Source: Patescibacteria group bacterium
GTDB lineage: Bacteria; Patescibacteriota; Patescibacteriia; JBHPGJ01
Direction of reading: 5' to 3'
NCBI GenBank assembly: GCA_042570545.1
Contig: JBHPGJ010000002.1
Coordinates: 31,741-95,740, forward strand
DNA length: 64,000 nucleotides
Every line of letters starts with the position of its first letter. Within the stretch, counting starts at the first letter, position 1. Positions 7,968 through 63,776 of this stretch are shown here, piece after piece. The notes below the pieces were generated by a model that saw nothing but the letters and a program-made list of their open reading frames with translations, was not told the origin of the DNA and did not search any database. The position numbers and the translations under genes were made by a program.

Positions 7968-7971
7968 ATAT

Positions 7972-33142: not shown

Positions 33143-33998
33143 GATTAACAGATCACTGCTAAGTATATTGGGAATTATATTTATTATGGCAGTGTTATTA
33201 GTGATCACGTTTACCGGGCAGGCAGATAATCTGAAAGTTGTTTTCCTTGATGTTGGACAGGGAGATGCTATCTATATTAGAACTCCGCAGGCTCAAGATA
33301 TATTGATAGACGGCGGGCCCGGCTCTTATGCGGCTGAACAGATCGGACAGCATATGCCTTTTTATGACCGCGATATTGAATTGGTTATATTAAGTCATGG
33401 GCACTCAGATCATGTATCCGGACTGGTAGAGATTCTTAAGCGCTATCAGGTGAAGCAAATTATCTACTCCGGGCAAGTAAATCACTCGGCGCCTGACTAC
33501 CAGCGGTTTCTTGAGCTGACAGATGAGAAAAATATTCCTTTAAATTCAGTTACTCATGGCCAGCAAATAAAACTTAGCTCTGATATCAGACTGGATATTT
33601 TATATCCCAACCAGGATTATACCGGAAAAACTTTGGATGATCTAAATGAAACATCAGTGATTGCACGGTTGAATTATGGTCAAAATGTATTTCTGTTTAC
33701 CGGTGATGCCGGACAAGAGATTGAAGAACAATTATTAGCTTTAGAACTAAATCTAGCCTCAGAAGTGTTAAAAATTGGACACCATGGCAGTAAATATTCG
33801 TCATCCCGGGCTTTTATTGAAGCCGTCAGCCCTGATTATGCTGTTATTCAATCAGGCGAGGATAATAGTTTTGATCACCCGCATGAAGAAACGCTGGACG
33901 TACTTAATAAGCTGAATATAAAGACATTGAGAAATGATCAGCTCGGGGATATCGTCTGTACTGGTAATGGTGTTGAAATAGATTGCCAGGACTCTTGA
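33132..33998 (+). CDS. Membrane-anchored metallo-beta-lactamase-fold protein; the stand-alone nuclease-like C-terminal domain of ComEC.
   Basis: N-terminal TM segment; MBL motifs 'VVFLDVGQGDAIYI', 'LILSHGHSDHVSGL' and 'GDAG'. It overlaps the previous gene by 11 nt in a different frame. Confidence 0.8.
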   Translation: MKTKINRSLLSILGIIFIMAVLLVITFTGQADNLKVVFLDVGQGDAIYIRTPQAQDILIDGGPGSYAAEQIGQHMPFYDRDIELVILSHGHSDHVSGLVEILKRYQVKQIIYSGQVNHSAPDYQRFLELTDEKNIPLNSVTHGQQIKLSSDIRLDILYPNQDYTGKTLDDLNETSVIARLNYGQNVFLFTGDAGQEIEEQLLALELNLASEVLKIGHHGSKYSSSRAFIEAVSPDYAVIQSGEDNSFDHPHEETLDVLNKLNIKTLRNDQLGDIVCTGNGVEIDCQDS

Positions 33999-35504: not shown

Positions 35505-35537
35505 ATGACGCTGGGACCCTGAAAGGAGCTGAAAAAG

Positions 35538-36893
35538 ATGATAGACCTTATCATTTTGCTAGCGGCCATTACTAGCGTTCCCTTCTTGATGAAGAAGGCG
35601 CTAAAGCCGAAACCGGTCGAAGACGAAGAGACCACGGTAGAGCCGGAATTCAAACTTCCGCTGTGGGTCAAACTGACGACTGCTGGTATGTACGTCATCG
35701 CCCTGATGCAGCAGTACAAGATCATCAAGAAGCATGGCGTGAGCTGGTTCTCAGCCGACCATGTGGTGACCGGACTACTAGTGCTTGGCATCATCTTGAC
35801 CGTTTTGACGGTGGTTCTTCACCAGGTCAAGCTGCAAGCACAGCGTAGCGGCAAGATCGAGGTCAAACGCGGACTGGCTACCGGTCGTCCGGGCATGTTG
35901 AGAGTCGGCGTCTACGCCGCTTTCATCTGGGCGCCACTGGCCCTGTATGTGTTACTGCCAACGGTAGCCCTGAACCAGTTCTTACACTGGTTGTCGGATA
36001 TCGGCTGGGCTGGTCAAGGTATGCTGTTTATGGTCCTGACGTTCATCTACAGCCTGGTATACAGAAAAGCAACAGGCGAGTCGACGGGACCGCTAGTTGG
36101 TGCCATGACCTTTCTGTACTTCTTCCTGCTGATCATTGGCTTCAATCCGACAGAGCTGATGGCGGCGACTACGGAGTTCACACCGGAGCACGTTACCTGG
36201 ATGACCCACCATGGCTGGGGTTGGTGGTTTCTGATCACATTGTCGATCAGTGCCATCTTCTTTCTCTGGTATGGTAAGCGCAAAAAGTGGCATTGGGGCT
36301 ACACCTTTCTCGGTGCTCTGCCTATCTGCCTGGTGCTATTGGGTGGGACCTACGCTCTGAAGATCTTCCCACCTGGTCATCTGCCCAATCACTACACCAA
36401 AGGACAAACGGTGCTGGATAGTCTGCCGCCTGAACTACCTGACGGCGAGGACCGGCTGTTGCGGGTGACCACCTACAACGACCAGAACTACGGTCTGGCC
36501 AAAGCAGGGGATGTACTCAAGTTTGGCGACAGATTTGAGGGCTTTGCCAGGGTATTTACCCACGAGTCTAAAGGCTTAAGGCCTGACGACTGGGAGGTGG
36601 TATCACTGGCCAGCCCGACGCCACTGCCTAAAGACCTGGGCTTTGAAGCCTATCGTTGGCCCTGTCCCAACGACCCGGTCTGTTGGCCGGTGCTGATGGT
36701 CAAGCGTCTGTCCAAAGGGATGAGTCGCAATGACCAAACTCAGTATGAGGCGGTTTGGCCGGGCAAGGTGGTCCGGATCGAGTACGACGGTGAGCTTATA
36801 CTCAGTACCAATAAGCCCGAACCGTTCACTTGGATCTGGAAAGTTCGTTCCTGCTGGATCTTTGACATGAAGCACTATCGTGTAACTGCCTGA
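35538..36893 (+). CDS. Polytopic membrane protein with a C-terminal soluble beta-rich domain. It is the operon partner of the SPFH gene and may be NfeD-like.
   Basis: About eight predicted TM helices, then 'VWPGKVVRIEYDGELILS'. RBS 'AAAGGAG' is present. It has the same elevated GC as the upstream gene. Confidence 0.55.
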   Translation: MIDLIILLAAITSVPFLMKKALKPKPVEDEETTVEPEFKLPLWVKLTTAGMYVIALMQQYKIIKKHGVSWFSADHVVTGLLVLGIILTVLTVVLHQVKLQAQRSGKIEVKRGLATGRPGMLRVGVYAAFIWAPLALYVLLPTVALNQFLHWLSDIGWAGQGMLFMVLTFIYSLVYRKATGESTGPLVGAMTFLYFFLLIIGFNPTELMAATTEFTPEHVTWMTHHGWGWWFLITLSISAIFFLWYGKRKKWHWGYTFLGALPICLVLLGGTYALKIFPPGHLPNHYTKGQTVLDSLPPELPDGEDRLLRVTTYNDQNYGLAKAGDVLKFGDRFEGFARVFTHESKGLRPDDWEVVSLASPTPLPKDLGFEAYRWPCPNDPVCWPVLMVKRLSKGMSRNDQTQYEAVWPGKVVRIEYDGELILSTNKPEPFTWIWKVRSCWIFDMKHYRVTA

Positions 36894-37034: not shown

Positions 37035-37112
37035 TGGCGGACCCGACCGGATTCGAACCGGCGATCTTCTCCGTGACAGGGAGACGTGTTAACCGGGCTA
37101 CACTACGGGTCC
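37035..37112 (-). tRNA. tRNA-Asp (anticodon GTC) with an encoded CCA.
   Basis: The reverse complement folds as: acceptor GGACCCG/CGGGTCC, anticodon stem TCTCC/GGAGA with loop CTGTCAC, T-arm GCCGG-TTCGAAT-CCGGT, discriminator G, CCA. Confidence 0.9.
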
Positions 37113-38672: not shown

Positions 38673-39080
38673 TGGTGGAGATGAGGGGTAATACTCCCCT
38701 GTGTAGATGAGATTCCAAATAGTGTGTACACGCTTATTCACCGTTGGGTATGATTAGCTGAGGCTTAAACGATGACAAAAAACTTCAACTAATATCTTCT
38801 GGTGTCATCCGTTATTCACCGACAGAAGATAATCAGTGAATACTTACCTGATAATTGACACCCATGATAGTCTATCAGGTATTGACTATCTGGATGGTTG
38901 TTACGTTTTAGGCAACAACAGAAGCAAGCTTAGGAGCCGCAAAAGCGTTGGCTAATGTGGTCTTAAACTTACTGAATGTAGATTTGACACTTATCGTTTC
39001 CGGAAGGGATTTACAAGTCATCCGGAAGACTTGACGTGCACTGATTTGAAAAGATCATTCTATCGACTATAAACATCCCC
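38673..39080 (-). ncRNA. ssrA: tmRNA (ssrA), about 408 nt. Candidate tag reading frame encodes ANAFAAPKLASVVA then stop (plus-strand 38908-38952).
   Basis: ORF-free 470-bp gap adjacent to smpB. On the minus strand the 5' end is GGGGATG and the 3' end is ...AGGGG-AGTATTA-CCCCT-CATCTCC-A-CCA. The acceptor stem has the G3:U70 wobble and A73, which are tRNA-Ala identity elements. The 5' region 'GGGGATGTTTATAGTCGATAG' parallels the E. coli tmRNA 5' end. An internal short ORF begins GCC-AAC and ends in UAA. Confidence 0.8.
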
Positions 39081-39117: not shown

Positions 39118-39594
39118 CTATGTTTTTTGTCTAAGTACCCTTCTGATTTTGCGATCAGTGTCTCGTTTCTTTATTTCTTCTCGGCGATCCCGTTTTTTCT
39201 TACCGGTCACTAAAGCGACCTCGATTTTTACGAGACCGCCCTTAGTATAAACAGTTATTGGTATCATTGTCAAGCCAGGGGTTTTGGTCTTACCGATAAG
39301 AGTTTTTATCTCAGATTTGTTTAATAATAGGCGACGATCACGATCAGCTTGGTAATCAACTTGCCTGCCCTTGGCAAAGCGATAGGGGGCAATACGGGAC
39401 TGTTTGAGCCAGGCTTGTTCATTATCTATGCTAATATAAGCACCCTTGAGATCAATATCTCCTAATTTAGCGCTTTTTACCTCAGCCCCAGTTAAAGCAA
39501 TACCGGCCTCATATATTTCGAGGATTTTGAATTGGGCTTTGGCTTTTCTATTGTTAGCTAATTGTGGCACGACATAAGTATACTTTTGTTTCAC
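39118..39594 (-). CDS. smpB: SsrA-binding protein SmpB.
   Basis: 'AYISIDNEQAWLKQSRIAPY...LLLNKSEI' and the basic C-terminal tail are typical of SmpB. Confidence 0.9.
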   Translation of the reverse strand: MKQKYTYVVPQLANNRKAKAQFKILEIYEAGIALTGAEVKSAKLGDIDLKGAYISIDNEQAWLKQSRIAPYRFAKGRQVDYQADRDRRLLLNKSEIKTLIGKTKTPGLTMIPITVYTKGGLVKIEVALVTGKKKRDRREEIKKRDTDRKIRRVLRQKT

Positions 39595-45424: not shown

Positions 45425-46177
45425 ATGTCCAGTTATCGCCGCAGTATAGCTCTTACCTTGCGTCGCGAAAATATTGGCGAATATGACCGCCGATATACTT
45501 TTTATACTAAGCGTTATGGTAAGGTAGTGGCTATCGGCCGGGGAACTCATAAGATATTAAGTAAATTAGCTGGTACTCTAGAACCCTATCGAGTGATTGA
45601 GATTAATCTAGCTAGTGGAAAAACAAATAATACGATAATTGCCGCTGAGACCATAAATGGCCGTAATGGTCTGTGGTCAGGTGAGACAACGCTGGTCCAG
45701 GCGGCCTTTATCAGTGAAATTGTTGATACTTTAATACAGCCGGAGCAAGCTGATAAAAATGTATGGCAACTGATAACGCAAGTTTATGGTGAGCTATATA
45801 AACCTTCGATGGTATCAAATATTTTAGGATCATTTTTCATAGTCCGATTATTGACCATCCTAGGGTTTGGTCCAGAATTACATAATTGCATTAATTGCCA
45901 CCAGCGCTTGAAATCTGAACCGGCAACCATGGTTATTTCTCGTGGATTGGCTTGTCAGCAATGTAAAATCAGAGGGATTAGAATCACAACTAACGTTATA
46001 AAAATAATTCGATTAATGCAGCGGGGTAACTGGCCCTTGGTTAAAAAGCTCTCAGCCAGCAATGAAGACATTACTCTGTTATCGTCAGTGACGTATAAAT
46101 TGTTAGGTCAACACTTAGCAAAACCACCAGCCACATTGAAATTACTTAATTATCTGGCGCGTAGAGTTAATGGTTAA
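45425..46177 (+). CDS. recO: DNA repair protein RecO.
   Basis: N-terminal OB-fold pattern 'IALTLRRENIGEYDRRYTFYTKRYGKV'; C-terminal 'CINCHQRL...CQQC' zinc finger. Confidence 0.85.
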   Translation: MSSYRRSIALTLRRENIGEYDRRYTFYTKRYGKVVAIGRGTHKILSKLAGTLEPYRVIEINLASGKTNNTIIAAETINGRNGLWSGETTLVQAAFISEIVDTLIQPEQADKNVWQLITQVYGELYKPSMVSNILGSFFIVRLLTILGFGPELHNCINCHQRLKSEPATMVISRGLACQQCKIRGIRITTNVIKIIRLMQRGNWPLVKKLSASNEDITLLSSVTYKLLGQHLAKPPATLKLLNYLARRVNG

Positions 46178-51341: not shown

Positions 51342-54110
51342 ATGGCAGAAGAAGAAATACTACCAGATCTGTTACTACTTGAATGCAATACCTGCAAAGG
51401 TCGGGGCCGCTTAGCCGAGGACAAACAGACAAAAGCGTGTCCCAGTTGTCATGGTCTTGGATTAGCCGCCTGGCTTGATGGACAGTTCTGGCACTGGGGT
51501 AAAACATTTTCCATCCTGCGCATATTAAGCGACCGGGCCGAGCAGCTGGGCCGGGCGGTTATAAATGGCATCTTAATGGCCTTGGCACTGGTCGGGTTTG
51601 CCAGCGGGGTCTGGCAATTTTATCAGCGCTGGCAGGTTGATACTGACGTAGTCGGCTGGCTAAACACTCGCAATACCGGCATGATATTATTTTGGATCGG
51701 TTTGCTTATCGGTTTATATATTTTCTTTCGTTTAGAGCGTGAGCGGTCATCACACCCGGTTATAAAACGCAAAAGTATTGGTAATTTATTAATCCCGCCA
51801 CCGGCTGGATTGACTTATGATGATTACCAAAAAAATAAATTACAGTCACTTGAAATATCTCAGTATCTTGACTGGCAGGCCAAACAATCAGTTGAGAAGG
51901 CCTGGCTACTGGCTCATCGTCTTGATCACCCACAGGTAGAACCAATTCATTTATTGGCCTCACTTTATGATGCTCCGCGGGTTAAAGTTATCATGGCCCG
52001 CTTAGGTGTTGATTCGAGCAAGTTAGTACAAAAAATAAAAAGACGTTTTAGTGAACTGCCAAAAATAAAGGGTGGCGAACCCATTGTGTCCGCTAATGTG
52101 CTGGAGCTTTATTATCAGGCTTTTGCTTTTGCTTATAAAGAAAGGAATCCAGTGATTGATGCTCCAGATCTTTTTCTAGCTGTCACTAAGGTAGAGGCTG
52201 TGGCCAAAGAGATCTTATATGATATGGAGGTTGATGAAAATAAACTGACAAATGTCGTCAAGTGGGTAGATTTGCAGCAGCGTGTAAGCAAACAGTGGCA
52301 ACGTTTTCGGTCCCGAGCGGCTCGCAAACCCAAAGGTGCCATGGATCGGGCCATGCTAGCCCAGGCCACTCCCGTACTTGATCATTATAGTCGCGATTTG
52401 ACCCAGTTGGCCAGGATTGGCGGTTTACCCCTGACCATTGGTCGTGATGATGAAGTGGAAGAGATATTTAGAGTATTAGAGAGTGGCCGCGGTAATGCCT
52501 TAATCGTCGGTGCCGCTGGAGTCGGCAAGGATATGTTGCTTAACGCCATTGCCGACCGGATGGCTTCGGAAGAAGTTCCCGAGAGCCTACAAGATAAAAG
52601 GTTTGTATCACTTAATATTTCTTCACTAGTAGCCGGCGCTGGTGCAGTCGGGGAGCTGGAAGAAAGACTGCATGAACTGCTGGATGAGGTGGTGAGATCG
52701 GGCAATATAATAATAGCAATAGAGAATCTCCACACCATGGTCGGTGTTTCTTCAGCTGGTGGACAAAGCATGGACTTGTCCGAGGTCCTGGCCCAGGCTA
52801 TTGCTACCAATAAGATAATTGTTGTCGGTACATCGACACCAAATGAATTTCGAAAGTATATCGAACCGCGTGGCAGTCTGATGACGCACTTTCAACCGAT
52901 AAGGATCAATGAGGTCGATGAAAATACTTCCATTCTGATATGTGAAACTAAAGTCGGCCCGATAGAATATCATCACCGAGTATTTTTTGCTTATGAAGCG
53001 ATAGAAAGATCGGTCAAATTAGCTAAACGTTATTTGACCGAATTAATGCTGCCAACTTCAGCCATCAATTTAATGGAGGAAGTAGCGGTAATGGTGAAAA
53101 AGACGAAAGGGGTCAATAGCTTTGTAACCGGTGAAGATGTGGCTCAGTTGGTATCACAGCGGGCAAATGTATCCGTCACAAAAATAACTGAGGACGAGAC
53201 GGAAAAACTGCTTAATCTAGAAAATATAATTCACCAGCGTTTAATCGACCAGAATGAGGCTGTCAATGCTGTTGCCTCGGCGCTACGCCGGGCCCGAGCC
53301 GAGCTAAGAGATACCAAAAGGCCAATAGCTAATTTACTGTTCTTAGGTCCAACCGGAGTGGGTAAGACCCAACTGGCTAAAACAGTCGCTGACGTATATT
53401 TTGGTTCCGAAGAAAACATGATCCGTCTGGACATGTCGGAATATCAAGACCAATATTCTATCTACCGGTTGATCGGCACTCCCGAAGGAGCCGGTGGCGG
53501 TTACCTGACCGAAGCCGTCAGACGTAATCCATTTTCACTGGTGCTGCTGGATGAAATTGAAAAAGCCCACCCCGATGTTTTAAACGTATTTTTACAAGTT
53601 ATGGACGATGGTCGTTTGACTGATTCATCAGGACGGACAATAGATTTTACCAACGTTATATTGGTTGCTACCTCAAATGCAGCTACACCAATTATTCAAG
53701 CCCGAGTTAGTGAGGGTGTTGATGTTCAGCATATTAAAGATGAAATGATGACTGGCGGTCTGGCCAAATATTTCCGGCCAGAATTTCTTAACCGTTTTGA
53801 TAACATAGTTGTCTTCAAACCACTCAGCCTAAGCGATATATTTGCAATTGCCAAATTGCTGCTTAAGGACGTAGAGAAACGACTGCAGAAAAAGGGCATT
53901 ATACTTGAGGCGACCGATGGGGCAATAGCTGAGCTGGCCAAAGCCGGTTATGACCCCATTTATGGTGCTCGACCATTACGGCGGGTGATCCAAGAGAGGG
54001 TTGATGATGCGTTAGCTAAACATTTACTTCAGGGCAAGATCGGTCGACGCGATATTGCTGTATTAGAAACCGGTGGTCGGATTACGGTCAAACAAGCCAA
54101 GGAATTATAA
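51342..54110 (+). CDS. Membrane-anchored ClpC/ClpB-like AAA+ protein with an N-terminal CxxC zinc ribbon, two TM helices, Clp_N repeats, a degenerate D1 and a canonical D2.
   Basis: N-terminus 'CNTCKGRGR...CPSCHG'; TM helices around residues 75-125. D1 Walker A reads 'GAAGVGKD' and Walker B 'IIIAIENLHT', both non-canonical. D2 reads 'GPTGVGKT', 'LVLLDEIEKAHPDV' and 'RPEFLNRFD'. Confidence 0.8.
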   Translation: MAEEEILPDLLLLECNTCKGRGRLAEDKQTKACPSCHGLGLAAWLDGQFWHWGKTFSILRILSDRAEQLGRAVINGILMALALVGFASGVWQFYQRWQVDTDVVGWLNTRNTGMILFWIGLLIGLYIFFRLERERSSHPVIKRKSIGNLLIPPPAGLTYDDYQKNKLQSLEISQYLDWQAKQSVEKAWLLAHRLDHPQVEPIHLLASLYDAPRVKVIMARLGVDSSKLVQKIKRRFSELPKIKGGEPIVSANVLELYYQAFAFAYKERNPVIDAPDLFLAVTKVEAVAKEILYDMEVDENKLTNVVKWVDLQQRVSKQWQRFRSRAARKPKGAMDRAMLAQATPVLDHYSRDLTQLARIGGLPLTIGRDDEVEEIFRVLESGRGNALIVGAAGVGKDMLLNAIADRMASEEVPESLQDKRFVSLNISSLVAGAGAVGELEERLHELLDEVVRSGNIIIAIENLHTMVGVSSAGGQSMDLSEVLAQAIATNKIIVVGTSTPNEFRKYIEPRGSLMTHFQPIRINEVDENTSILICETKVGPIEYHHRVFFAYEAIERSVKLAKRYLTELMLPTSAINLMEEVAVMVKKTKGVNSFVTGEDVAQLVSQRANVSVTKITEDETEKLLNLENIIHQRLIDQNEAVNAVASALRRARAELRDTKRPIANLLFLGPTGVGKTQLAKTVADVYFGSEENMIRLDMSEYQDQYSIYRLIGTPEGAGGGYLTEAVRRNPFSLVLLDEIEKAHPDVLNVFLQVMDDGRLTDSSGRTIDFTNVILVATSNAATPIIQARVSEGVDVQHIKDEMMTGGLAKYFRPEFLNRFDNIVVFKPLSLSDIFAIAKLLLKDVEKRLQKKGIILEATDGAIAELAKAGYDPIYGARPLRRVIQERVDDALAKHLLQGKIGRRDIAVLETGGRITVKQAKEL

Positions 54111-54136
54111 AAGAGCAGACCGATCTGATCTGCTCA
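54105..54136 (-). terminator. Hairpin terminator between the convergent Clp-like and Gam-like genes; the T-tract is on the minus-strand side.
   Basis: GAGCAGA (54114-54120) ... TCTGCTC (54130-54136); the minus-strand reading gives the stem followed by TTTTATAA. Confidence 0.5.
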
Positions 54137-54162
54137 GTAAGAAACTATTAGCGGACCTTGGC

Positions 54163-54708
54163 TCAGGTCAGCTTTTTCAGCTTGTCTACGCCGGCGGCGA
54201 TCTCAGCGTCGGTTTTGTCTGGCTTGACGAAGAATTCTTCGTGCTGACCAATCTTAACACCTTTGACTTGGCCAGCCGCCCCCGGCTCCTTGAGCATGGC
54301 CTCCTTATCGACCGTTTTCTTGACTCGGATGAAGCGGGTAAGACGTTTTTCCCGGAGCTGTTTCAGGACAGCGTCAACATTGCGGAGGGTTACCGCCGGA
54401 GGTGTTAAACGCCAGCCGAAAGTGCCAACCGGCAGATCAACCGATTTCTTCTTATCGCTATCGGTAAGCTCAGTACGGTTGGCTTGAGCAAAAGCAAACA
54501 AACCAGTCACCAGATCGTCGATCCGCCTTTGCCGCACTTGCACTTTTTCGGCCGCCTCTTCTTTCAACCGGTCCAGTCTGGAGTTGAGTCGGGTGTTGAC
54601 CGCATCAATAGCACGTTGTTCGACGGCAATGTCGGCGATAAATTTGGCGGCGGCGGCTAGATCCTGCGGTACAGCAACTACTGATCTTTTCAGCGTTTTC
54701 TTAGTCAT
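54163..54708 (-). CDS. Bacteriophage Mu Gam-like DNA-end-binding / host-nuclease inhibitor protein.
   Basis: 'AQANRTELTDSDKKKSVDLPVGTFGWRLTPPAVTLRNVDAVLKQLREKRLTRFIRVKKTVDKEAMLKEP' closely parallels the Mu Gam core '...ANRDELT...SWRVRPPSVSIRGMDAVMETLERLGLQRFIRTKQEINKEAILLEP', which is recalled from memory. RBS AAGGGGG is present. Local GC is about 55%. Confidence 0.75.
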   Translation of the reverse strand: MTKKTLKRSVVAVPQDLAAAAKFIADIAVEQRAIDAVNTRLNSRLDRLKEEAAEKVQVRQRRIDDLVTGLFAFAQANRTELTDSDKKKSVDLPVGTFGWRLTPPAVTLRNVDAVLKQLREKRLTRFIRVKKTVDKEAMLKEPGAAGQVKGVKIGQHEEFFVKPDKTDAEIAAGVDKLKKLT

Positions 54709-54802
54709 GACAAATCCCCCTTGAGCTATGTGACAGAACGCGAATTTATTTGAATTTTCATTATTCTTTTAGCAGTTATATAGATTGATGTCAACTCAAG
54801 TC

Positions 54803-54831
54803 TTGACTTATTATAAAAATTGAATTATCAT
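54803..54831 (+). promoter_or_regulatory. Sigma70-like promoter (TTGACT, 17-nt spacer, TATCAT) with an overlapping inverted repeat (GTCAAC..GTCTTGAC), in the divergent Gam / small-ORF intergenic region.
   Basis: ttgact at 54803-54808; tatcat at 54826-54831; inverted repeat 'gtcaactcaagtcttgac' at 54790-54807. Confidence 0.4.
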
Positions 54832-54921
54832 ATCTACTCACATAGTCACTTGGTATGAATACGAGGCGCTTTGATTTGCTTAAGCGGTTGACGTTTGTCT
54901 CACCCTCGAGGAGGATTTCTA

Positions 54922-55119
54922 ATGTACGATATGCCCCACCGTACCTGTGTAGGCTGCGGACACATCAGGCCGGCTTCCAGTCCTGACACCTTCCATTGTT
55001 TACTGATAACTGCCGGCTCCAATTGTGTGTTCGGCAAAGACAAAGACGTCGCCACTGCGGAACTCAGTCAGATCAAACCGGGTAACCGTGTCGACCGAAG
55101 CGAAGCCACCAATGGCTAG
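54922..55119 (+). CDS. Small (65 aa) Cys-rich hypothetical protein, possibly a zinc-ribbon; divergent from the Gam-like gene.
   Basis: Perfect SD GAGGAGG 7 nt upstream of the ATG; 'CVGCGH...HCLLITAGSNC'; followed by a terminator. Confidence 0.45.
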   Translation: MYDMPHRTCVGCGHIRPASSPDTFHCLLITAGSNCVFGKDKDVATAELSQIKPGNRVDRSEATNG

Positions 55120-55132
55120 CACGATCATTATG

Positions 55133-55170
55133 ACCATGCTGTGACATCTCGCAGCATGGTTTATCTTATT
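55133..55170 (+). terminator. Rho-independent terminator.
   Basis: ACCATGCTG (55133-55141) ... CAGCATGGT (55152-55160), followed by TTATCTTATT. Confidence 0.6.
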
Positions 55171-55220
55171 GCCAAACAATAAAAAATAGCTATACTAAGC
55201 ACATAAAAATCATACGTTTT

Positions 55221-56024
55221 GTGGCTCAGGAGTATAAAAATAATAATTTGAAAATTGTAATACTAACTTCATACAAACACATATATGCTGATATAGTAAT
55301 TAGGAAATTGTTTTCAGCGCTTCCTGATCATCAGTATCTAATTATTTATCAGAAAGCTTTAGTAGCCGGTAAATCTAAGATAAGTGGGCTGCAATATTAT
55401 TGGCGAAAGAGTGGTGCCAGATATGTGATGGCTCAAGTAATTAAGCAATTAATTATTTTATTATTCTATCGATTTTTAAAGCCTGATAAAAACATTCAGA
55501 CAGAAATTTGGGAAAACCATAAACTGGATGATATTGAAAAAATAATTAGTGATTATCAGCCCGATGTAATCTTATCAATTTATTCAAAGTATAAATTATC
55601 TGACAACATTCTGTCAGCGGCCAGCAAGTACTCAATAAATATTCATCCGTCGCTATTGCCGGCTTATAAAGGCGTCAGTCCCACGTTTTGGGTTCTGGCA
55701 AACGACGAAAAAGAGACCGGAGTATCTATCCATAAATTAACCAAATCTTTTGATGAAGGAAGTATAGTTGCTCAGAAGAATATTTACATAGATAAAAATG
55801 ATAGCGAGCATAGTTTATACCTAAAATGTTCTATGCTGGGATCTGGTTTGGTGATCGATACATTAAATATTATAAATACCAACCAGCCGCTTACTAAACT
55901 GTCAGAAAATAAATCGTCATCATACTTTTCTCTACCTGATCGATCAGCAGTTCGGAAGTTTAAAAATAATGGGCGGTCGTTTTTTAAATTATCAGAGTTG
56001 TCAAAAAAACCTGTACTTAACTAA
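55221..56024 (+). CDS. Formyltransferase (Fmt / ArnA N-terminal-domain-like).
   Basis: 'INIHPSLLPAYKGVSPTFWVLANDEKETGVSIHKLTKSFDEGSIV' is the formyl-transferase active-site region. Confidence 0.8.
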   Translation: MAQEYKNNNLKIVILTSYKHIYADIVIRKLFSALPDHQYLIIYQKALVAGKSKISGLQYYWRKSGARYVMAQVIKQLIILLFYRFLKPDKNIQTEIWENHKLDDIEKIISDYQPDVILSIYSKYKLSDNILSAASKYSINIHPSLLPAYKGVSPTFWVLANDEKETGVSIHKLTKSFDEGSIVAQKNIYIDKNDSEHSLYLKCSMLGSGLVIDTLNIINTNQPLTKLSENKSSSYFSLPDRSAVRKFKNNGRSFFKLSELSKKPVLN

Positions 56025-56045
56025 TATTATGTATATAATATAACC

Positions 56046-56798
56046 ATGTCAGCTGAATACGAAAAAGATTTCAGCCTAATATTGCCTATATATAATGAGG
56101 GCATAAAATTATCAAAAAACTTAGATAATATATCGCGTACTCTTGGTATTGCTGGTATTAATTATGAAATAATACTAATTGACGATGCCAGTCAGGACGA
56201 TAGTGCTCAGCGGGCAAAGAATTTTGCTCAGTCTAATGATAGGGTGGTTTTTTATCAGCATGAAAAAAATATGGGTCGCGGTCGGACGGTCATGGATGGT
56301 TTTTCTAAAGCCAAGGGACAAATAATAAGTTTTATTGATGTCGATTGTGAGGTGTCGCCAATATATTTGTTAGAATTTGTGAATGATATGCTTAATAATA
56401 ATAAAGTTGATGTAATAACCGGCCGCCGGATTTATACATTCTCAATAAGTAAAATGCTCCGACCGTTATTTAGCATGATTTATCGAGTGTTGATACGGGT
56501 GATGCTGGGAGTAAAACTGCTAGATACGGAAACGGGTTATAAATTATTTCGTAATTCTTCCTATCAAAGTATAGCTTCATTTTTAAAAAATAACGACTGG
56601 TTCTGGGATACTGAGGTGATGACAGTCTCGGCATTAGCTGGTCTTAAGATACAAGAGAGAAATGTATTATTTGTCAGAGATCATGACAAAAAATCATCAG
56701 TTCGTCTGATCCCGGATATTATAAAGTACTTAAAAGCCATGATGAAATTTCGACGTACTATTCCGCAATTAAAGAGGGATCTGAAAAATAATGGATAA
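56046..56798 (+). CDS. GT2 polyprenyl-phosphate sugar transferase (ArnC/DPM1-like).
   Basis: 'LSLILPIYNEGIKL...EIILIDDASQDDS' is a GT2 signature. Confidence 0.8.
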   Translation: MSAEYEKDFSLILPIYNEGIKLSKNLDNISRTLGIAGINYEIILIDDASQDDSAQRAKNFAQSNDRVVFYQHEKNMGRGRTVMDGFSKAKGQIISFIDVDCEVSPIYLLEFVNDMLNNNKVDVITGRRIYTFSISKMLRPLFSMIYRVLIRVMLGVKLLDTETGYKLFRNSSYQSIASFLKNNDWFWDTEVMTVSALAGLKIQERNVLFVRDHDKKSSVRLIPDIIKYLKAMMKFRRTIPQLKRDLKNNG

Positions 56799-57966
56799 AC
56801 TGAAAAATTTTATACCCTTTGGCGCTCCCAAATTTGACAAGCATACCGAACAGGAGGTCATAAAAACTTTACGCAGTGGCTGGATCGGTACCGGACCGCA
56901 AACAGAAAAGTTTGAAAAGAAAATTGCCGAGTATCTGGGTGTAGAAAACGCAGTGGCCGTATCATCATGTACGGCTGGTCTGCATTTGAGTTTATTGGTT
57001 TCGGGGATCAAGCAGGGTGATGAAGTAATAACCAGTCCTATGACCTATATTGCCACCGCCAGCGCCATTATGCAGGCTGGTGCCAAAGTAAAATTTGCGG
57101 ATATTGATTTAGCCACTTATAATATTAAATCTGATGAAATCGGAAAAAATATAAGCAAAAAGACAAAAATAATCCTGCCGGTTCATTTTGGCGGCTTACC
57201 GGCTGATCTAGCAGCAATCAAAAAGATTATCGGACGAAAGAAAATAAAAATCATTGAAGACGCAGCTCATGCTATTGGTGCCCGGTATGATGGTAAAAAA
57301 ATCGGTAAAAGTGATAATTTAGTCTGTTTTAGTTTCTACCCAAATAAAAATATCACCAGTTGCGAAGGGGGAATAATAGCAGTACCTGATAAGAAGTTGG
57401 CTGATAAAATACGCGTACTAAGCACGCACGGATTAGACGCCGATGCCTGGAAACGATATCATCGCCGTTCTTTGCGGGTTAGCCTGGCGGTAATGCCTGG
57501 ATATAAATATAATCTGACCGATTTAAATTCCACCATTGGCTTGCAACAGCTAAAAAAAGTCGAGAAATGGCAGCGGCTGAGAGAAAATTATGCAAAGATT
57601 TATGATAAATTTTTTAGTGATATTCCCGGCGTTTATATACAGAAAAGACCCAAGAATATCAGACGCAATCGGCACTCATTGCACCTGTACAGTTTAAGGT
57701 TGGATGAAGAAGTATTTAAACATGGTACCAGGGATAGGGTAGTCAAAAAATTATTAGCTAAAAATATTGGTGCCAGCGTTCATTACTATGCCATACATCT
57801 ACATCCGTTATTTCGCAAATTAGGTTATAAAAAAGGAGATTTTCCAATCGCTGAAAAAGTAAGCCAAGAGATTTTTTCCCTGCCGTTGACCCCCCATCTG
57901 ACTACTAATGTTATCAGAACCATTGCCGGCATTACTAAAGAAACGATAAAGAATAACCTTTCATAA
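56791..57966 (+). CDS. DegT/DnrJ/EryC1/StrS-family PLP-dependent sugar aminotransferase (ArnB-like).
   Basis: 'FGAPKFDKHTEQEVIKTLRSGWIGTGPQTEKFEKKIAEYLGVENAVAVSSCTAGLHL' is the family N-terminus; an active-site Lys region is present. Confidence 0.85.
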   Translation: MDKLKNFIPFGAPKFDKHTEQEVIKTLRSGWIGTGPQTEKFEKKIAEYLGVENAVAVSSCTAGLHLSLLVSGIKQGDEVITSPMTYIATASAIMQAGAKVKFADIDLATYNIKSDEIGKNISKKTKIILPVHFGGLPADLAAIKKIIGRKKIKIIEDAAHAIGARYDGKKIGKSDNLVCFSFYPNKNITSCEGGIIAVPDKKLADKIRVLSTHGLDADAWKRYHRRSLRVSLAVMPGYKYNLTDLNSTIGLQQLKKVEKWQRLRENYAKIYDKFFSDIPGVYIQKRPKNIRRNRHSLHLYSLRLDEEVFKHGTRDRVVKKLLAKNIGASVHYYAIHLHPLFRKLGYKKGDFPIAEKVSQEIFSLPLTPHLTTNVIRTIAGITKETIKNNLS

Positions 57967-57970
57967 TTTA

Positions 57971-58711
57971 GTGGATCAATCTACACATAATACAGTTAGA
58001 CGTGAGGGTACCAAACACTGGTGGTTTGTCGGACGTAAACAAATTTTTGCCAAATTATTAAAAAATTATCTTCCCAAATCGAATCTTAATATACTTGATC
58101 TCGGCTGCGGATCGGGCAATATGTATTCGGTATTAAGTAAATATGGAAAACTGACAGGGGTCGATAATAGCGGGGAAGTGCTGGCCTACGCCCAAAAAAT
58201 TGGTTACGAAAAAATTGTCAAAGCCAACGCCCTTGATCTTCCGTTAAATAATAATGAATATGATTTGGTAGTCGCTGTTGATCTGATTGAACATATCGAC
58301 GATGAAAATAAATTTATAAATGAGATATTTCGGGTGATGAAACCCGGTGGCTACTTATTTATTACCACCGCTGCCTTTGATTCTCTGTGGAGCCGATTAG
58401 ATGAGCTGTCTCATCATAAGCGTCGCTATACCAAGGTCTCGTTAATGAAAAGTTTAAGCCGGCCGGGCTGGCAATTGGAAAAAATAAGATATTATAATGT
58501 ATTTCTTTTTTGGCCCATAGTGATAAAACGCATGATTGATAAGATGTTATCAAACAAATCAAATGACGCCAGTGATTTGTATGATCTAAGAACACCGCCG
58601 GCCATAATTAATAATCTTTTGGAAAATATTTTAATCAGCGAAAAGTATTTTATCGGTATCCCGTTCCCAGCCGGTGTATCGTTAATGGCAATAGTTAAAA
58701 AAAATGGATAA
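57971..58711 (+). CDS. Class I SAM-dependent methyltransferase.
   Basis: 'ILDLGCGSGNM' motif I; 'VVAVDLIEH' motif II. Confidence 0.7.
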   Translation: MDQSTHNTVRREGTKHWWFVGRKQIFAKLLKNYLPKSNLNILDLGCGSGNMYSVLSKYGKLTGVDNSGEVLAYAQKIGYEKIVKANALDLPLNNNEYDLVVAVDLIEHIDDENKFINEIFRVMKPGGYLFITTAAFDSLWSRLDELSHHKRRYTKVSLMKSLSRPGWQLEKIRYYNVFLFWPIVIKRMIDKMLSNKSNDASDLYDLRTPPAIINNLLENILISEKYFIGIPFPAGVSLMAIVKKNG

Positions 58712-59333
58712 AAAACTGGCCCTAAACAATTTAAAACTAATATATTCTGGTAAATCAAATTTATATATTCAGCTGCGGACTAGATTATTTTGGTCACGAT
58801 TTGAGAAGTTAGTTAATTTATTACCAGACCAGGGCCGTCTTGTCGATATCGGCTGTGGCCAAGGGCTATTGTTGAATTTAATATCAGTATATCGACCCAG
58901 TCTGACATTAGTTGGCGTTGACACGGACAGTGAGCGTATCAGTGAAGCAGAGAAAACCATAAATGGCCGAACAAATATTAAGTTTTATAACTCTGACGCC
59001 AGAGAATTTAACTTTCAAACAGGTGATAATATTCTTTTTGTGGATTCACTCCATCACATACCGTATAACGATCATCGGCCACTACTGCAAAGACTGGCAC
59101 AGCAAGTTAAGCACGAGGGTAGATTGATAATATCTGAAGTTGAAAAAAACCCCCGCTGGAAATACGCGCTGTCTTATTTGAGTGATACACTACTGTATCC
59201 TAGTAGTACCAGGTGTCAGTTTTATAGTGTTACAGAAATGATGGCCTTGCTCAAAAGCACAGGCTGGAACGACCAAAGCATAACCAAGGTTCATAATATA
59301 TTTCCAACAGTGATTTATGAATGCCAAACTTAG
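58704..59333 (+). CDS. Class I SAM-dependent methyltransferase.
   Basis: 'LVDIGCGQGLLL' motif I. Confidence 0.7.
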   Translation: MDKKLALNNLKLIYSGKSNLYIQLRTRLFWSRFEKLVNLLPDQGRLVDIGCGQGLLLNLISVYRPSLTLVGVDTDSERISEAEKTINGRTNIKFYNSDAREFNFQTGDNILFVDSLHHIPYNDHRPLLQRLAQQVKHEGRLIISEVEKNPRWKYALSYLSDTLLYPSSTRCQFYSVTEMMALLKSTGWNDQSITKVHNIFPTVIYECQT

Positions 59334-60849
59334 TCTAATACCCAAAAGTTGGAGCCGGCGTACGGTCATGATCATAATGGTCTTGGTTGTTCTTGTTTTA
59401 CTTTTTTATCAATTAGATATATATCCACTTGCCGGGCCCCAAACTGATGAACATTTTTACCTTAGGTTTGCTAATGAGAGAATAAATAATTATAACTTTC
59501 CGGGATCATTAAAATATTTCACATCAGTATCGCCACAGCTGCCGATGACTGAACTGTATCTTATAATTACTTCAGGGTATTTGAAAATTGCCGGACTAAA
59601 CTTTGTAGCCGCAAGATCTTTTTCAATTATCTTTACGCTGGCCACCTTAATAATATTGTGGTTATTGGCAGCGGCGATCGGCAAACGGTCGGTTGTTTTT
59701 TTTACGTTCATGAGTTTGATATCGACGACCTACTTTTGGAAAATATCAAGAGAATTCATTCCTCACGTGGTCGTGATGTTTGCCATCTTTGGGTCGGTAT
59801 ATTTTTTATATAAATGGCGGCAGAGTAATAAGTCATATTTTTATTATATTAGTTTGCTTTTAGCAATTCTGGCACCATTCATTTCTTACTGGGCCCTATT
59901 TTTTATACTACTATTTCCTTGGTTAGTATACCAAAGAACAAAAAAATTAACTTTTTGGTTAAGTTGGTTGCCCATCAGCCTATTATTTTTATATTGGTCG
60001 ATTAAATATTATGCACTGGGAGAAATATTCTTAATGGATTTATATGAATTATTTAATTGGCAGCAAACTGGTGGCTTATTAGGTGATTCTGATCTATTAA
60101 ATCAATTTATTTACGGTCTAAAAAAATTCGTGTTTTTTTTGGGCAGCAATTTTACATTGTTACCCGGATTATTAGGCTTACTATTAATTAAAGATCGGTG
60201 GCTTAGAAACAGCTTGCTGGCCATTGTTATTATTGGCGGTGTGTTTATTTTCCGCACCCGAGATTATATATTTAGTCAATACTTAACAATAATTCTTATA
60301 CCATTTCTGGCGCTGGGCGCTGGAGTGATATTGGCAGGACTTTTCAGCTGGCTTAAAAAGATGTTAAATAATCTTAAGATAAATATTTTATTTTATTATT
60401 TAATACTAGCATCATTTATTATGATAATGTTAGTTGGAACAATTTTCAGGTACGTAGATATTCAGCAGATAAGAAATGAGACAGTTAATTACTATCATAA
60501 AATTTATGATACAAGTGATTTTGTCAATAGCATGATCACTCCAATGGATTATATTATCGCCCCGTCCGAGATATATTGGCGTATTCATTCAGATGCTATG
60601 GTCGAGTCGGGTGTATACGCCAGAGAATTTGGTCGTATTAATGATAATTTTAGAGCGAATTATCGGACCGAAGATAAATACTTTAATTGGGACACAGATG
60701 TAGCTAATGCCAAATTCGTAGTACGGCGATCGCCAAAAATGTTAAAGTATAATCATATGGATGATTATATAGTAGAGCAGACTACTGATTGGCCTTTAGT
60801 ATTTTCCAATGATTACTACTTAGTGTATAAGAACGAAGCTATTGATTAA
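59317..60849 (+). CDS. GT-C fold membrane glycosyltransferase (ArnT/PMT, GT83/GT39-like).
   Basis: At least 10 predicted TM helices; a first-loop 'DE' motif 'GPQTDEHFYLRFA'; a large C-terminal soluble domain. Confidence 0.7.
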   Translation: MNAKLSLIPKSWSRRTVMIIMVLVVLVLLFYQLDIYPLAGPQTDEHFYLRFANERINNYNFPGSLKYFTSVSPQLPMTELYLIITSGYLKIAGLNFVAARSFSIIFTLATLIILWLLAAAIGKRSVVFFTFMSLISTTYFWKISREFIPHVVVMFAIFGSVYFLYKWRQSNKSYFYYISLLLAILAPFISYWALFFILLFPWLVYQRTKKLTFWLSWLPISLLFLYWSIKYYALGEIFLMDLYELFNWQQTGGLLGDSDLLNQFIYGLKKFVFFLGSNFTLLPGLLGLLLIKDRWLRNSLLAIVIIGGVFIFRTRDYIFSQYLTIILIPFLALGAGVILAGLFSWLKKMLNNLKINILFYYLILASFIMIMLVGTIFRYVDIQQIRNETVNYYHKIYDTSDFVNSMITPMDYIIAPSEIYWRIHSDAMVESGVYAREFGRINDNFRANYRTEDKYFNWDTDVANAKFVVRRSPKMLKYNHMDDYIVEQTTDWPLVFSNDYYLVYKNEAID

Positions 60850-60852
60850 CCA

Positions 60853-62349
60853 ATGAAAAAATTGATTTTTAACCGGTCAAATCTAATATTTATCGCTATT
60901 TTTATTATTGCTGCTGCTCTCCGATTAGTTTACCTCAGCGATACACCTCCTTGGTATACCGACGAAGGATTTTATCTGAATGTTTCCTGGGAAATAATTC
61001 ACGGAAATTATGAGATAATGGGTGTCGGCGACTGGACCTTTATCTCGCCCTACTTTACTACACCGCCGTTGTACTTATATATTATTGGATTGCTTAGTGT
61101 GGTGTTTGGCAAGACATTGTTAGTAACCAGATTGTTCTCAGTGGTAATCGGATTGGCAACCATTTTTTCTTTGTATGTGATCGGCAAAAAAATATTTTCA
61201 CCCAAACACGGTTTATTAATAGCAGCCGTATATGCACTGCTGCCTGAATTTATTTTAAATAACCGTTGGGCTTTCCCTCACGGTCTGGCCGGTTTATTGG
61301 TGCTATGGTGGATATATTTATTTTGGCGGTATCTGCAAAATAATGAACAAAAATATCTACTTTGTTCAATATTATTATTAGCCACTGCCAACCTGGTGAC
61401 CTATTGGACTTGGCCGCTGTTTATAGTGATGCCTTTTATATTGTGGCGCCGAATAAGAATTAAATCCATATTTTATAGTTTACTTAGTTTGCTGCCATTG
61501 CTGCTGTTGATCAGCTGGCGCTTGGCGGTCATACCGGAGATCTTTATAAGCGATTTACGAAGCTTAGTAAGCGGTGATGTTGTTCTGGATCCACATCCTT
61601 CAATCTTAATTGGTTTTATAAAATTTTATACCATGGATGTTTTGTTTTTTCTGTCGTTTATCGGACTGTTTTTAATTAAAGATAAAGTATTAAAGTGGCT
61701 AATCTTATCGGTCTATCTAATGACCAGTCTGCCGATATTAATTTATCGATGGAATCCAGTAGATCATTTTTATCCAAATCTTATATTTACGCCGGTTTTA
61801 CTGATTGGAGTGGGCGCGATATTTTTGCGGTTAGGCGATACTAAGAAAATATTTAATATTAAAATCACGAAAATATTATTACCGTTATTGATAGCTTATC
61901 TGTCGATCTGGACACTGATCAGTGGCGCTATGCTGGCTGACAAATCTCTAGCTAGGATAATTTCCGACCGGCCTTTTATCGTCGCCCAATCAGTGGGGGA
62001 AATGAAAGAGGTAGCGTCATATATTAATAACAGATCAAGTTCGGAAGACTATGTAATTGCTCCCAACAATCTCAATTGGCAATTAAAGGCCAGAACCACG
62101 ACCTTAGTATGGACAGCCTGTTATGAAAATATGGATGATTTTAATTTTATCTGGCCGGAAAGATATAGTTGGCAGCCATCAATTGCCGAGGCGAAATATT
62201 ACGTACATGATCGGTATTTTGGCGGTGATGCCAGTGTGTGCAAGCCGTATCGACAAGAAATAATCGATACTATGGTTGAGCAAAATTGGTCGGTAGTATA
62301 TAGTACCGAGCGCTTTGATGTTCATGCTAATCCACAACTAGCCGAATAA
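60853..62349 (+). CDS. GT-C fold membrane glycosyltransferase; a paralog of 59317-60849.
   Basis: Polytopic; 'PPWYTDEGFYLNVSWEI' is the DE-loop; C-terminal soluble domain. Confidence 0.7.
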   Translation: MKKLIFNRSNLIFIAIFIIAAALRLVYLSDTPPWYTDEGFYLNVSWEIIHGNYEIMGVGDWTFISPYFTTPPLYLYIIGLLSVVFGKTLLVTRLFSVVIGLATIFSLYVIGKKIFSPKHGLLIAAVYALLPEFILNNRWAFPHGLAGLLVLWWIYLFWRYLQNNEQKYLLCSILLLATANLVTYWTWPLFIVMPFILWRRIRIKSIFYSLLSLLPLLLLISWRLAVIPEIFISDLRSLVSGDVVLDPHPSILIGFIKFYTMDVLFFLSFIGLFLIKDKVLKWLILSVYLMTSLPILIYRWNPVDHFYPNLIFTPVLLIGVGAIFLRLGDTKKIFNIKITKILLPLLIAYLSIWTLISGAMLADKSLARIISDRPFIVAQSVGEMKEVASYINNRSSSEDYVIAPNNLNWQLKARTTTLVWTACYENMDDFNFIWPERYSWQPSIAEAKYYVHDRYFGGDASVCKPYRQEIIDTMVEQNWSVVYSTERFDVHANPQLAE

Positions 62350-62417
62350 TCAGTATTGGTTGCTTATAACCATTAAAATAAGTATAATTGAAATAGTTTA
62401 GAAAAAAATATATTCTT

Positions 62418-63776
62418 TTGCTTATTCAAATCAGCAGCCATAGCATGACAAACCAAAATAATTTAATGGAAGATATCATCTCGCTAGCCAAACGGCGGGG
62501 TTTTATTTTTCAGTCATCGGAAATGTACGGTGGCTTGGGTGGTTTTTATGATTACGGCCCGCTGGGGGTTGAACTAAAAAGAAAAGTAGAAAGCCAGTGG
62601 TGGAAAATATTCGTGGAAGAACGGGAAGACGTGGTTGGCCTGGCCAGCTCAATAATAATGAATCCTAAGGTCTGGGAAGCCAGCGGTCATCTTGAGCATT
62701 TTTCTGACCCCTTGGTAGAATGCAAAAAATGTCATCAACGATTCCGGGCTGATCAAGAAGCGGAAATCAAAGAACATCAGCACCAGGAATTTACCGAACC
62801 GCGGTCTTTTAATACTTTGTTTAAGACTTATGTTGGACCGACCGAGGATGATGCCAATGTGGCTTACTTACGGCCGGAAACTGCCCAAGGTATGTTCGTA
62901 AACTTTGAAAACGTCCTTAATTCTACCCGAGCCACTGTGCCTTTTGGTATTGCGCAGATTGGTAAATCGTTCCGCAACGAAATAACTTACCGGAATTTTA
63001 TTTTTCGCGTGCGTGAATTTGATATTGCCGAAGTCGAGTACTTTGTAAAACCCGGTGAGGACGACCAGGCCTTTGCTGACTGGTTGAAATTTATGGAGCG
63101 GGCATTGACTGAGGGCTTTGGATTAGATAAGAAAAAATTAAAACATTTTGAGCATCCTAAGGAGAAACTAGCTCATTATAGCAAACAGACTATTGATATC
63201 ATGTATCAGTACCCCTGGGGCTGGGATGAATTATGGGGCCTGGCCAACCGGACTGATTATGATCTAAAACAGCATGAAAAATTTTCGGGGCAAAAATTAG
63301 CTTATCGTGATCCAAAATCCGGCGAAACCTATACGCCTTATGTTATTGAGCCGACCGGGGGTATAGACCGCTTATTGCTGGCCATATTAGCGGAATCTTA
63401 CTCCAAGGTAAAAGGCGGTCGTACTACCACCACTAAAGCAACCAAGGATGAAGAAGTAGTACTAAAATTACCAAAAAATCTTGCCCCATTTCAGGTGGCC
63501 GTATTGCCGTTAACCAAAAAAGAAAGTGTAACCAAAGTGGCTCGCCAAATTTATGATGAATTACGGCTGAAGCTGGCTATTGATTATGATGAAGTTGCCT
63601 CGGTAGGCCGCCGCTATCGGCGTCAGGATGAAATTGGTACACCTTATTGCGTGACTATAGATTTTGACTCACTAGATGATAAGCAGGTAACTATTCGTGA
63701 CCGGGATACAATGAAACAGGATCGGATACCGATTGATAATTTGGCCGACGAGCTAACTAGGAGATTAGCTGACTAA
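62418..63776 (+). CDS. glyQS: Glycyl-tRNA synthetase, alpha2 (GlyQS) type.
   Basis: 'RRGFIFQSSEMYGGLGGFYDYGPLGVELK' is typical of class II GlyRS; the anticodon-binding C-terminus is also typical. Confidence 0.9.
   Translation: MLIQISSHSMTNQNNLMEDIISLAKRRGFIFQSSEMYGGLGGFYDYGPLGVELKRKVESQWWKIFVEEREDVVGLASSIIMNPKVWEASGHLEHFSDPLVECKKCHQRFRADQEAEIKEHQHQEFTEPRSFNTLFKTYVGPTEDDANVAYLRPETAQGMFVNFENVLNSTRATVPFGIAQIGKSFRNEITYRNFIFRVREFDIAEVEYFVKPGEDDQAFADWLKFMERALTEGFGLDKKKLKHFEHPKEKLAHYSKQTIDIMYQYPWGWDELWGLANRTDYDLKQHEKFSGQKLAYRDPKSGETYTPYVIEPTGGIDRLLLAILAESYSKVKGGRTTTTKATKDEEVVLKLPKNLAPFQVAVLPLTKKESVTKVARQIYDELRLKLAIDYDEVASVGRRYRRQDEIGTPYCVTIDFDSLDDKQVTIRDRDTMKQDRIPIDNLADELTRRLAD

Follow-up and report, generated by a model that had tools for sequence, protein, structure and literature searches.

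A lone, recently acquired Mu-type gam gene in a Patescibacteria chromosome

The window analyzed here is a 64,000-nt stretch of contig JBHPGJ010000002.1 from a metagenome-assembled genome (MAG) of a Patescibacteria group bacterium (GCA_042570545.1), and it carries on its minus strand, at 54163..54708, a gene (gam) whose 181-aa product (GenBank MFC1662681.1) falls in the Mu Gam family (PF07352). The Pfam model Phage_Mu_Gam matched the gam product at 116 bits (gathering cutoff 28.3) over profile positions 3-149 of 149, and PHROG 491 ("Mu Gam-like end protection") matched it at 7e-41 over positions 1-175 of 176. BLASTP against gp10 of phage Mu (NC_000929) aligned 159 aa at 35% identity (E 6e-29) and reproduced the motifs from which an earlier, sequence-only reading of this DNA had recognized a Mu Gam homolog; both proteins contain ANRxELT, (G/S)WRxxPPxV and RFIRxK...(D/N)KEA(M/I)L. 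The N-terminus of the window protein is in register with its homologs and every family-invariant residue is kept. On these sequence matches the window gene is assigned as a genuine, full-length member of the Mu Gam family. The gene call is correct and was already in GenBank, where the protein is named [quoted passage not shown] and sits on a 105-kb contig. It adds one more member to a well-known family.

Structure comparisons were made with PDB 2P2U, a putative host-nuclease inhibitor Gam from Desulfovibrio vulgaris, which is the only solved relative and whose function is likewise putative. A profile of the window Gam and its 27 closest relatives matched 2P2U at E 3e-20 over residues 14-167, the aligned part of 2P2U being residues 11-164. 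The AlphaFold (AF2) model built on the clade alignment had a mean predicted local distance difference test score (pLDDT) of 91.3 and presented a helix of ~60 residues (17-76) followed by a mixed alpha/beta, beta-rich C-terminal domain; this layout and the protein's size agree with what is expected of the Mu Gam family (170-190 aa, as in 2P2U). Structural alignment of the model with 2P2U gave a weak match at 24% identity, probably caused by comparing a monomer model with an intertwined dimer. The Ku family (PF02735) was not among the Pfam matches of Gam up to E 1, nor was Ku among the matches of a fold search with the monomer model, in which 2P2U itself was only weakly matched. The Ku connection of this family comes from the literature (PMC1378119), and family membership follows from sequence evidence.

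The gene is equipped with expression signals of its own. Direct reading of the sequence placed a Shine-Dalgarno-like GGGGGA (54714..54719, minus strand) 5 nt upstream of the gam ATG, and a terminator-like hairpin (54113..54135, minus strand) with a 9-bp stem followed by UUUUAUAA lies 3' of gam (-14.4 kcal/mol, z -4.3 versus shuffled sequences). On the plus strand the same hairpin sits 3 nt past the stop codon of the neighboring ClpC-like gene, without a U-tract (-10.6 kcal/mol, z -3.3). Upstream of gam, a divergent intergenic region of 213 bp (54709..54921; AT-rich, GC 0.357) separates it from a small open reading frame (ORF) of 65 aa that contains Cys residues (54922..55119, plus strand; coding status putative). 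Inside this spacer a promoter-like TTGACT-17-TATCAT (54803..54831, plus strand) stands back-to-back with a TTGACA on the minus strand (~54790-54795), but 54709-54921 yielded no promoter of full consensus for gam. The small ORF is preceded by a Shine-Dalgarno sequence, GAGGAGGA (54908..54915, plus strand), 6 nt before its ATG, and followed by a strong terminator-like hairpin (55132..55161, plus strand) with a 13-bp stem and UAUCUUAUU (-22 kcal/mol, z -5.9). The sequence-only reading had described hairpin terminators on both sides of the locus as well as a ribosome-binding site and sigma70-like promoter for the small ORF, all of which were recovered here, the hairpins being real and more stable than shuffled sequences. 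The inverted repeat said to overlap the promoter dwindled to a weak 14-nt AT-rich palindrome (54803-54824, 79% complementary).

In base composition gam (GC 0.531) and the small ORF (0.545) depart from both the ClpC-like gene (0.457) and the glycan-modification cluster (0.364) on either side, and from the window as a whole (0.425), which bears out the earlier description of a ~1-kb GC-rich islet. GC content shifts abruptly at both islet borders, and at third codon positions (GC3) gam reaches 0.577, the third-highest value of 49 window genes (mean 0.387, sd 0.076). No convincing direct or inverted repeats flank the islet. A 12-nt inverted pair 1035 nt apart was considered as the ends of a mobile element and judged to be a chance occurrence.

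Comparison with sister contigs placed the islet in a strain-variable insert of ~8.3 kb (54111..62417), which comprises the gam islet (GC ~0.53) and the low-GC (0.364) glycan-modification cluster; by Pfam, the latter encodes a formyltransferase, a family 2 glycosyltransferase (GT2), a DegT aminotransferase, two methyltransferases, an unknown protein and a PMT_2-like transferase. The left conserved flank is the gene for a ClpC/ClpB-like AAA+ ATPase with an N-terminal Cys-rich, zinc-finger-like segment (MFC1662680.1; 51342..54110, plus strand), whose relatives on long sister contigs are 78%, 71% and 71% identical. The order upstream, IleRS, RecO, a CLIPPER/DUF11 protein, Tgt, a 128-131-aa protein and the ClpC-like protein, is common to the window and its sisters. 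Synteny resumes on the right with a class II aminoacyl-tRNA synthetase (62418..63776, plus strand; tRNA-synt_2b and HGTP_anticodon domains) that is 55% identical to the orthologous sister copies. The earlier placement of the islet between two housekeeping operons therefore holds on its left side but not on its right, where the accessory glycan cluster belongs to the same 8.3-kb insert.

In three sister loci (L173-L175) the ClpC-like stop codon is followed, after 49 bp, by the class II synthetase gene and then by genes for an M16 peptidase and others. Because the flanking genes are only 49 bp apart in these loci and synteny resumes at 62418, 54111-62417 is taken to be an insert. The closest sister (L172) has a different insert of 1.9 kb with three unknown ORFs at the same site, and neither gam nor the small ORF is present in any of the four sister loci (L172-L175). 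The ClpC-like/synthetase site is thereby shown to be a hotspot of variation, and gam to be an accessory gene of the window genome. Since the syntenic site is empty of gam in the four sister contigs and the composition of the gene is anomalous, gam is a recent horizontal acquisition; horizontal transfer was one of the two origins offered by the sequence-only reading. Islet (0.53) and glycan cluster (0.36) differ sharply in GC content, which suggests that they came from separate sources.

Relatives of the window Gam were sought in one genome per GTDB species (185,579 genomes) by peptide patterns and, in addition, in a collection of 5.8 billion proteins, where the closest relative had 57% identity. 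Matches at 41-61% identity came almost entirely from MAGs of Patescibacteria (synonym: candidate phyla radiation, CPR), including Saccharibacteria, Nealson-, Pacei-, Magasanik-, Portnoy-, Uhr-, Taylor- and Komeilibacteria, and matches at 44% identity or below in the GTDB species genomes were from Proteobacteria. By these patterns, ~30 Patescibacteria genomes (30-36 loci) carry a related, stand-alone gam. On the relatives' long contigs the lone gene lies among those for EF-Ts, for LepA/DivIC/PheST/GyrB or for S15/PNPase, and MuA/MuB were encoded in the fetched flanks of 0 of 36 CPR loci versus 32 of 52 non-CPR (mostly proteobacterial) loci. The same patterns applied to the 2.9 million viral contigs of IMG/VR retrieved no member of the CPR gam clade; the best viral matches reached 43-44% identity, all top matches were high in GC, and MuA/MuB were present at 34 of 80 viral gam loci. 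Phages in GenBank had at most 40% identity to the window Gam, in Mu-like Pseudomonas phages. In neighbor-joining trees of 75 and 133 taxa the CPR Gam proteins formed an exclusive bipartition separate from phage and prophage Gam, so that the window gene groups, with weak bootstrap support, with chromosomal CPR sequences rather than with prophage clades.

No conserved neighbor was found across the CPR gam loci, the largest clusters (LepA; RecG) spanning 3 loci each. Neighboring families were of the housekeeping kind, among them PheRS, LepA, RecG (3 loci), DnaJ, ThyX and methyltransferases, and an AbiEii toxin occurred twice; no ligase was among the 25 commonest of the 82 neighbor families of 30 CPR loci. 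Our literature search found no paper joining Gam with Patescibacteria or CPR, and a Patescibacteria-restricted, non-prophage, horizontally moving GC-rich gam lineage appears to be unreported.

Substitution patterns pointed to selection on this lineage, with dN/dS (the ratio of nonsynonymous to synonymous substitution rates) of 0.07-0.2 among closer CPR gam pairs; the CPR gam genes are therefore under purifying selection and functional. Elevated GC was a recurrent trait: gam GC3 exceeded the mean of its neighbors in 24 of 27 CPR loci and was the highest in 17, with a mean excess of +0.106 (Wilcoxon p 6e-7), whereas the gam genes of proteobacterial prophages have the same GC as their flanks. One pair of loci recorded movement between hosts. 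The gam genes at L014:3724-4245 and L023:3014-3520 are 84-93% identical, with a proportion of synonymous differences (pS) of 0.36, and they agree at 78% of the conserved four-fold sites. The syntenic RecG of the same two contigs (L014:4510-6654 and L023:5959-8049) is 43% identical (pS 0.83, four-fold identity 23%) and the upstream ORF 37% identical (pS 0.82, four-fold-site identity 0%), both saturated. Because gam is unsaturated and these neighbors are saturated, gam alone must have been exchanged, recently and long after the hosts diverged. Its position is loosely syntenic in the two contigs. This exchange and the empty site in the window's sisters together describe gam as a horizontally mobile, selected, single-gene cargo.

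The divergent 65-aa ORF was pictured by the sequence-only reading as a Cys-rich protein of CxxC...H...C...C pattern. The residues are there (C9, C12, H14, H25, C26, C35), but their spacing is not that of a canonical zinc-binding motif. No family match was obtained in Pfam, PHROGs or NCBIfam. A word-indexed search of the 5.8 billion proteins returned zero shared words, the ORF's own sequence included, and both of its start-codon versions are absent from deposited proteins, the ORF not having been called by NCBI. Filter-free HMMER against 1.84 billion representatives listed four repetitive proteins, rejected as homologs since their scores are summed repeat matches, an artefact. Against the 88 gam loci the best tblastn match had E 0.35 and lay off-site. 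When 54709-55220 was translated in all six frames, the other frames matched nothing either. Other CPR loci with enough DNA to judge have no comparable divergent ORF upstream of gam, and an Rfam E-value scan of 54650-55260 identified no RNA family. GC at the three codon positions of the ORF is flat (0.53/0.50/0.61), where real window genes have second-position values (GC2) of 0.30-0.39. The small ORF is thus not a conserved partner of gam, and since it is missing at all gam loci examined, this part of the sequence-only reading falls by that reading's own criterion. Given its good Shine-Dalgarno sequence, promoter-like site, strong terminator and gam-like composition, it may be, at most, a transcribed orphan that arrived together with gam.

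Some further observations concern the surroundings of gam in other genomes. The CPR gam loci are tRNA-dense (1 per 5.1 kb). Adjacency to a tRNA as a gam-specific integration signature was considered and rejected, as a tRNA lay within 350 bp of gam in 8 of 30 loci versus 39 of 214 other ORFs (p 0.32). In one locus (L012), diverged tRNA-Met/Arg(tcg)/Lys(ctt) arrays (1199-1770 and 3310-3610; 82-91% identical) bracket a 140-aa ORF and gam, an arrangement that looks like an integration footprint, and in another (L033) an Arg(tcg)-Lys(ctt) tRNA pair stands 0.8 kb upstream of gam. A third contig encodes, 3.5 kb downstream of its lone gam, a 1721-aa GyrB with two intein-splicing domains and a LAGLIDADG domain (L002:12236-17401; also in L003 and L004).

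In the remainder of the window the gene content is that of an ordinary Patescibacteria chromosome: IleRS, ArgRS, HisRS and another class II aminoacyl-tRNA synthetase, initiation factor IF3, a release factor, SmpB and transfer-messenger RNA (tmRNA), FtsA/FtsZ, NrdR, YbeY, a signal peptidase, an HtrA-like protease, Tgt and a NUDIX protein, along with giant surface proteins and several glycosyltransferases. Among ~50 scanned window ORFs there were no phage structural, integrase or transposition genes, in line with the earlier statement that no other phage genes are nearby, and no ligase or LigD genes. The same reading had seen little recombination machinery in the window, a view that the presence of RecO (45425-46177) and ComEC overturned. 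ComEC is encoded by an ORF for the channel (Competence and DUF4131 domains; 31625-33142) and a separate, overlapping ORF for the metallo-beta-lactamase domain (33132-33998), an arrangement that could be genuine or could stem from a frameshift or an error in sequencing. The tmRNA gene (38673-39080, minus strand; Rfam 72.8 bits) was missed by ARAGORN and adjoins smpB (39118-39594, minus strand). The highest GC3 values in the window (0.65 and 0.67 versus a mean of 0.39) belong to two adjacent genes at 34161-36893, one with an SPFH/Band 7 domain and the other without a family, beside a tRNA-Asp (37035-37112); this pair may be a second horizontally acquired segment. The N-terminus of the ClpC/ClpB-like protein (residues 12-48) weakly matches DnaJ CXXCXGXG and Anti-TRAP zinc-finger models, and the architecture with this unusual N-terminus is kept at 46-78% identity across many Patescibacteria. 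Further side observations are an ORF of 2100 aa (15974-22276) with an N-terminal T4SS-pilin domain and a Big_5 Ig-like domain, a relatively GC-rich (0.50) ORF of 1585 aa without Pfam match (71-4828), and cohesin- and dockerin-domain proteins at 7113-9096.

We assign a probability of about 0.72 to the reading that the window gene is a lone, recently acquired, accessory gam of Mu type, drawn from a mobile CPR lineage and end-protecting by homology. As we picture it, gam would stand alone on the left margin of the 8.3-kb strain-variable insert, served by a ribosome-binding site and a terminator of its own; it would belong to no prophage and would not be a host gene of long standing. A prophage is argued against by the housekeeping genes all around and by the lack of MuA/MuB. 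The gene would derive from a Patescibacteria-restricted lineage of lone genes that purifying selection keeps intact and that has passed from one divergent Patescibacteria host to another, its likeliest origin being the cargo of a putative mobile element or phage of these bacteria. According to PMC1378119, which cites d'Adda di Fagagna et al. 2003, Mu Gam is a Ku orthologue and a homodimer that binds DNA ends; end binding would therefore be expected of the window Gam as well. By this homology, a Gam dimer may bind double-stranded DNA ends and shield them from RecBCD/AddAB-type exonucleases, and gam would have been retained since the element, its host cell or the two together gain from having linear ends protected.

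Several points weigh against this reading. Bootstrap support for the CPR Gam clade is weak, at 124/200 (75 taxa) and 96/200 (133 taxa), and retrieval may be biased because the peptide patterns came from the CPR alignment. Four loci of the CPR group are labelled Gammaproteobacteria or Thermodesulfovibrionales and were assigned to the group by similarity and low GC; given their low GC and gene content, we regard them as misbinned. The selection figure applies at the level of the lineage, dS between the window gam and its nearest relative (57-58% identity) being saturated, and elevated gam GC3 could in part come from expression-linked codon bias. No integrase, transposase or terminal repeats were found with gam that would point to a transfer vehicle. 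End binding and nuclease blocking, finally, are functions that we infer from the work on Mu Gam (PMC1378119) and from general knowledge.

A bolder extension is that CPR have a lineage of selected single-gene gam cassettes of their own, spreading horizontally among deeply divergent members of the phylum, in which Gam is either a sole end protector or a self-promoting cassette, and we hold it to be rather unlikely. In its first form, Gam might be all that minimal, naturally competent genomes have by way of a dedicated protector of double-strand ends; in its second, the gam product might protect incoming linear DNA that encodes it and so aid its integration near conserved anchors such as tRNA arrays. 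ComEC imports single strands, and for this reason a role of Gam in protecting transforming DNA by the classical pathway is unlikely.

A rival reading is that gam has instead become a domesticated host factor, acting in Ku-like break repair or end protection, possibly with a ligase or RecG/RecO and to the benefit of the cell rather than of an element. That the CPR gam always stands alone amid housekeeping genes and is under purifying selection would fit such a role, as would RecG adjoining it in three loci, RecO and ComEC in the window, and the missing clade members among 2.9 million viral contigs. Against this stand its patchiness (~30-36 loci among 185,579 species genomes), the four closest contigs with a syntenic site devoid of gam, the lack of a conserved neighbor or of a ligase partner in the window, and a compositional anomaly and post-divergence exchange that signify mobility, not fixation. 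We therefore consider domestication unlikely, and the label "domesticated", offered by the sequence-only reading, is too strong for a gene that is patchy, accessory, horizontally mobile and not fixed. The same patchiness and mobility lower the odds of a genuine repair function for the host. The Ku-like repair factor also suggested there found no support, as neither the Pfam matches nor the fold search with the monomer model returned Ku and the window holds no neighboring ligase.

The same isolation might be taken as a sign of decay, gam being the last fragment of a degraded prophage or island without current function: it is a single phage-type gene without partners, it lies in a variable insert beside an unrelated accessory cluster, and the adjoining small ORF resembles non-conserved filler. 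Yet the gene is unbroken over its full length and has a conserved N-terminus, a Shine-Dalgarno sequence and a terminator, it retains every family-invariant residue, its clade has dN/dS of 0.07-0.2, and decay would not yield the same lone layout in ~30 genomes, which makes an inert leftover distinctly unlikely. It is very unlikely that gam and the divergent ORF constitute a two-gene module in which the latter is, for example, a small zinc-binding regulator or partner. Although the two have similar GC (0.53 and 0.545) unlike both flanks, a common divergent promoter region and, in the small ORF, a strong Shine-Dalgarno sequence and terminator, the ORF has no homolog in the databases searched, no protein family and no NCBI annotation, is missing upstream of gam in every other CPR locus that could be judged, has a GC2 (0.50) atypical of the genome's proteins and lacks a canonical zinc motif. 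The abrupt GC change at both islet borders, in a window that comes from a MAG, could also be read as a chimeric join in the assembly. This is extremely unlikely: sister synteny is intact up to the ClpC-like stop codon and back at the tRNA synthetase at 62418, on the same chromosome, and this recovery of synteny to the right of the insert is a strong argument against a chimera; the borders fall in intergenic DNA with flanking ORFs and terminators intact, and a GC-rich lone gam recurs in ~30 independent assemblies.

The lone accessory gam from a mobile CPR lineage can be set beside the known systems. Mu Gam (gp10) is of the same family and of similar size (174 aa versus 181 aa in the window, 35% identity). 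Mu, a transposable phage, carries its gene beside A/B in the early (semi-essential) region, whereas the window gam is alone, with no Mu-like gene within 64 kb, and its clade, unlike Mu Gam, is Patescibacteria-restricted with no member in the viral collections searched. An early-region, Mu-like phage context is therefore absent for the window gam; it is a habit of the family and not a defining feature. The best phage matches, at 35-40% identity and in the same Pfam and PHROG families, are the Gam proteins of Pseudomonas and Rhodobacter phages (D3112/JBD/MP29/PA1-KOR and RcapMu); the gam genes of such Mu-like phages and proteobacterial prophages differ in occurring with MuA/MuB (32 of the 52 non-CPR loci), in having the GC of their flanks and in lying outside the CPR clade. 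From bacterial non-homologous end joining by Ku (PF02735) and LigD the window gam is set apart by having no Ku Pfam match and no LigD or other ligase in the window or among its commonest neighbor families. Phage lambda Gam blocks host RecBCD and so protects linear DNA, but it does this by imitating DNA and attaching to RecBCD itself, whereas the target of Mu-type Gam is the DNA ends; the two have a name and an outcome in common and belong to unrelated families with different mechanisms and no visible sequence relation.

Overall, the gene itself is ordinary, and what the comparison adds is modest in its wider interest; the CPR gam lineage, whose phylogenetic support is modest, is a contextual variation and not a new kind of system. 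Its interest lies in the contrast with the standard view that bacterial Gam genes are prophage-borne (PMC1378119): here is a clade that occurs alone in ultra-small Patescibacteria chromosomes, is compositionally foreign and under selection, and has been exchanged between hosts long after these diverged. Gam has been used as a reporter of DNA double-strand breaks (PMC3809393), and this use and that as a genome-editing additive are reviewed in PMC3809393 and PMC5576876; if end binding holds true for the CPR proteins, they would offer compact new Gam variants for both purposes. Patescibacteria are genome-reduced and naturally competent (PMC10633639), and under the same proviso the CPR Gams would be candidates for the handling of linear DNA or for nuclease evasion in these bacteria.

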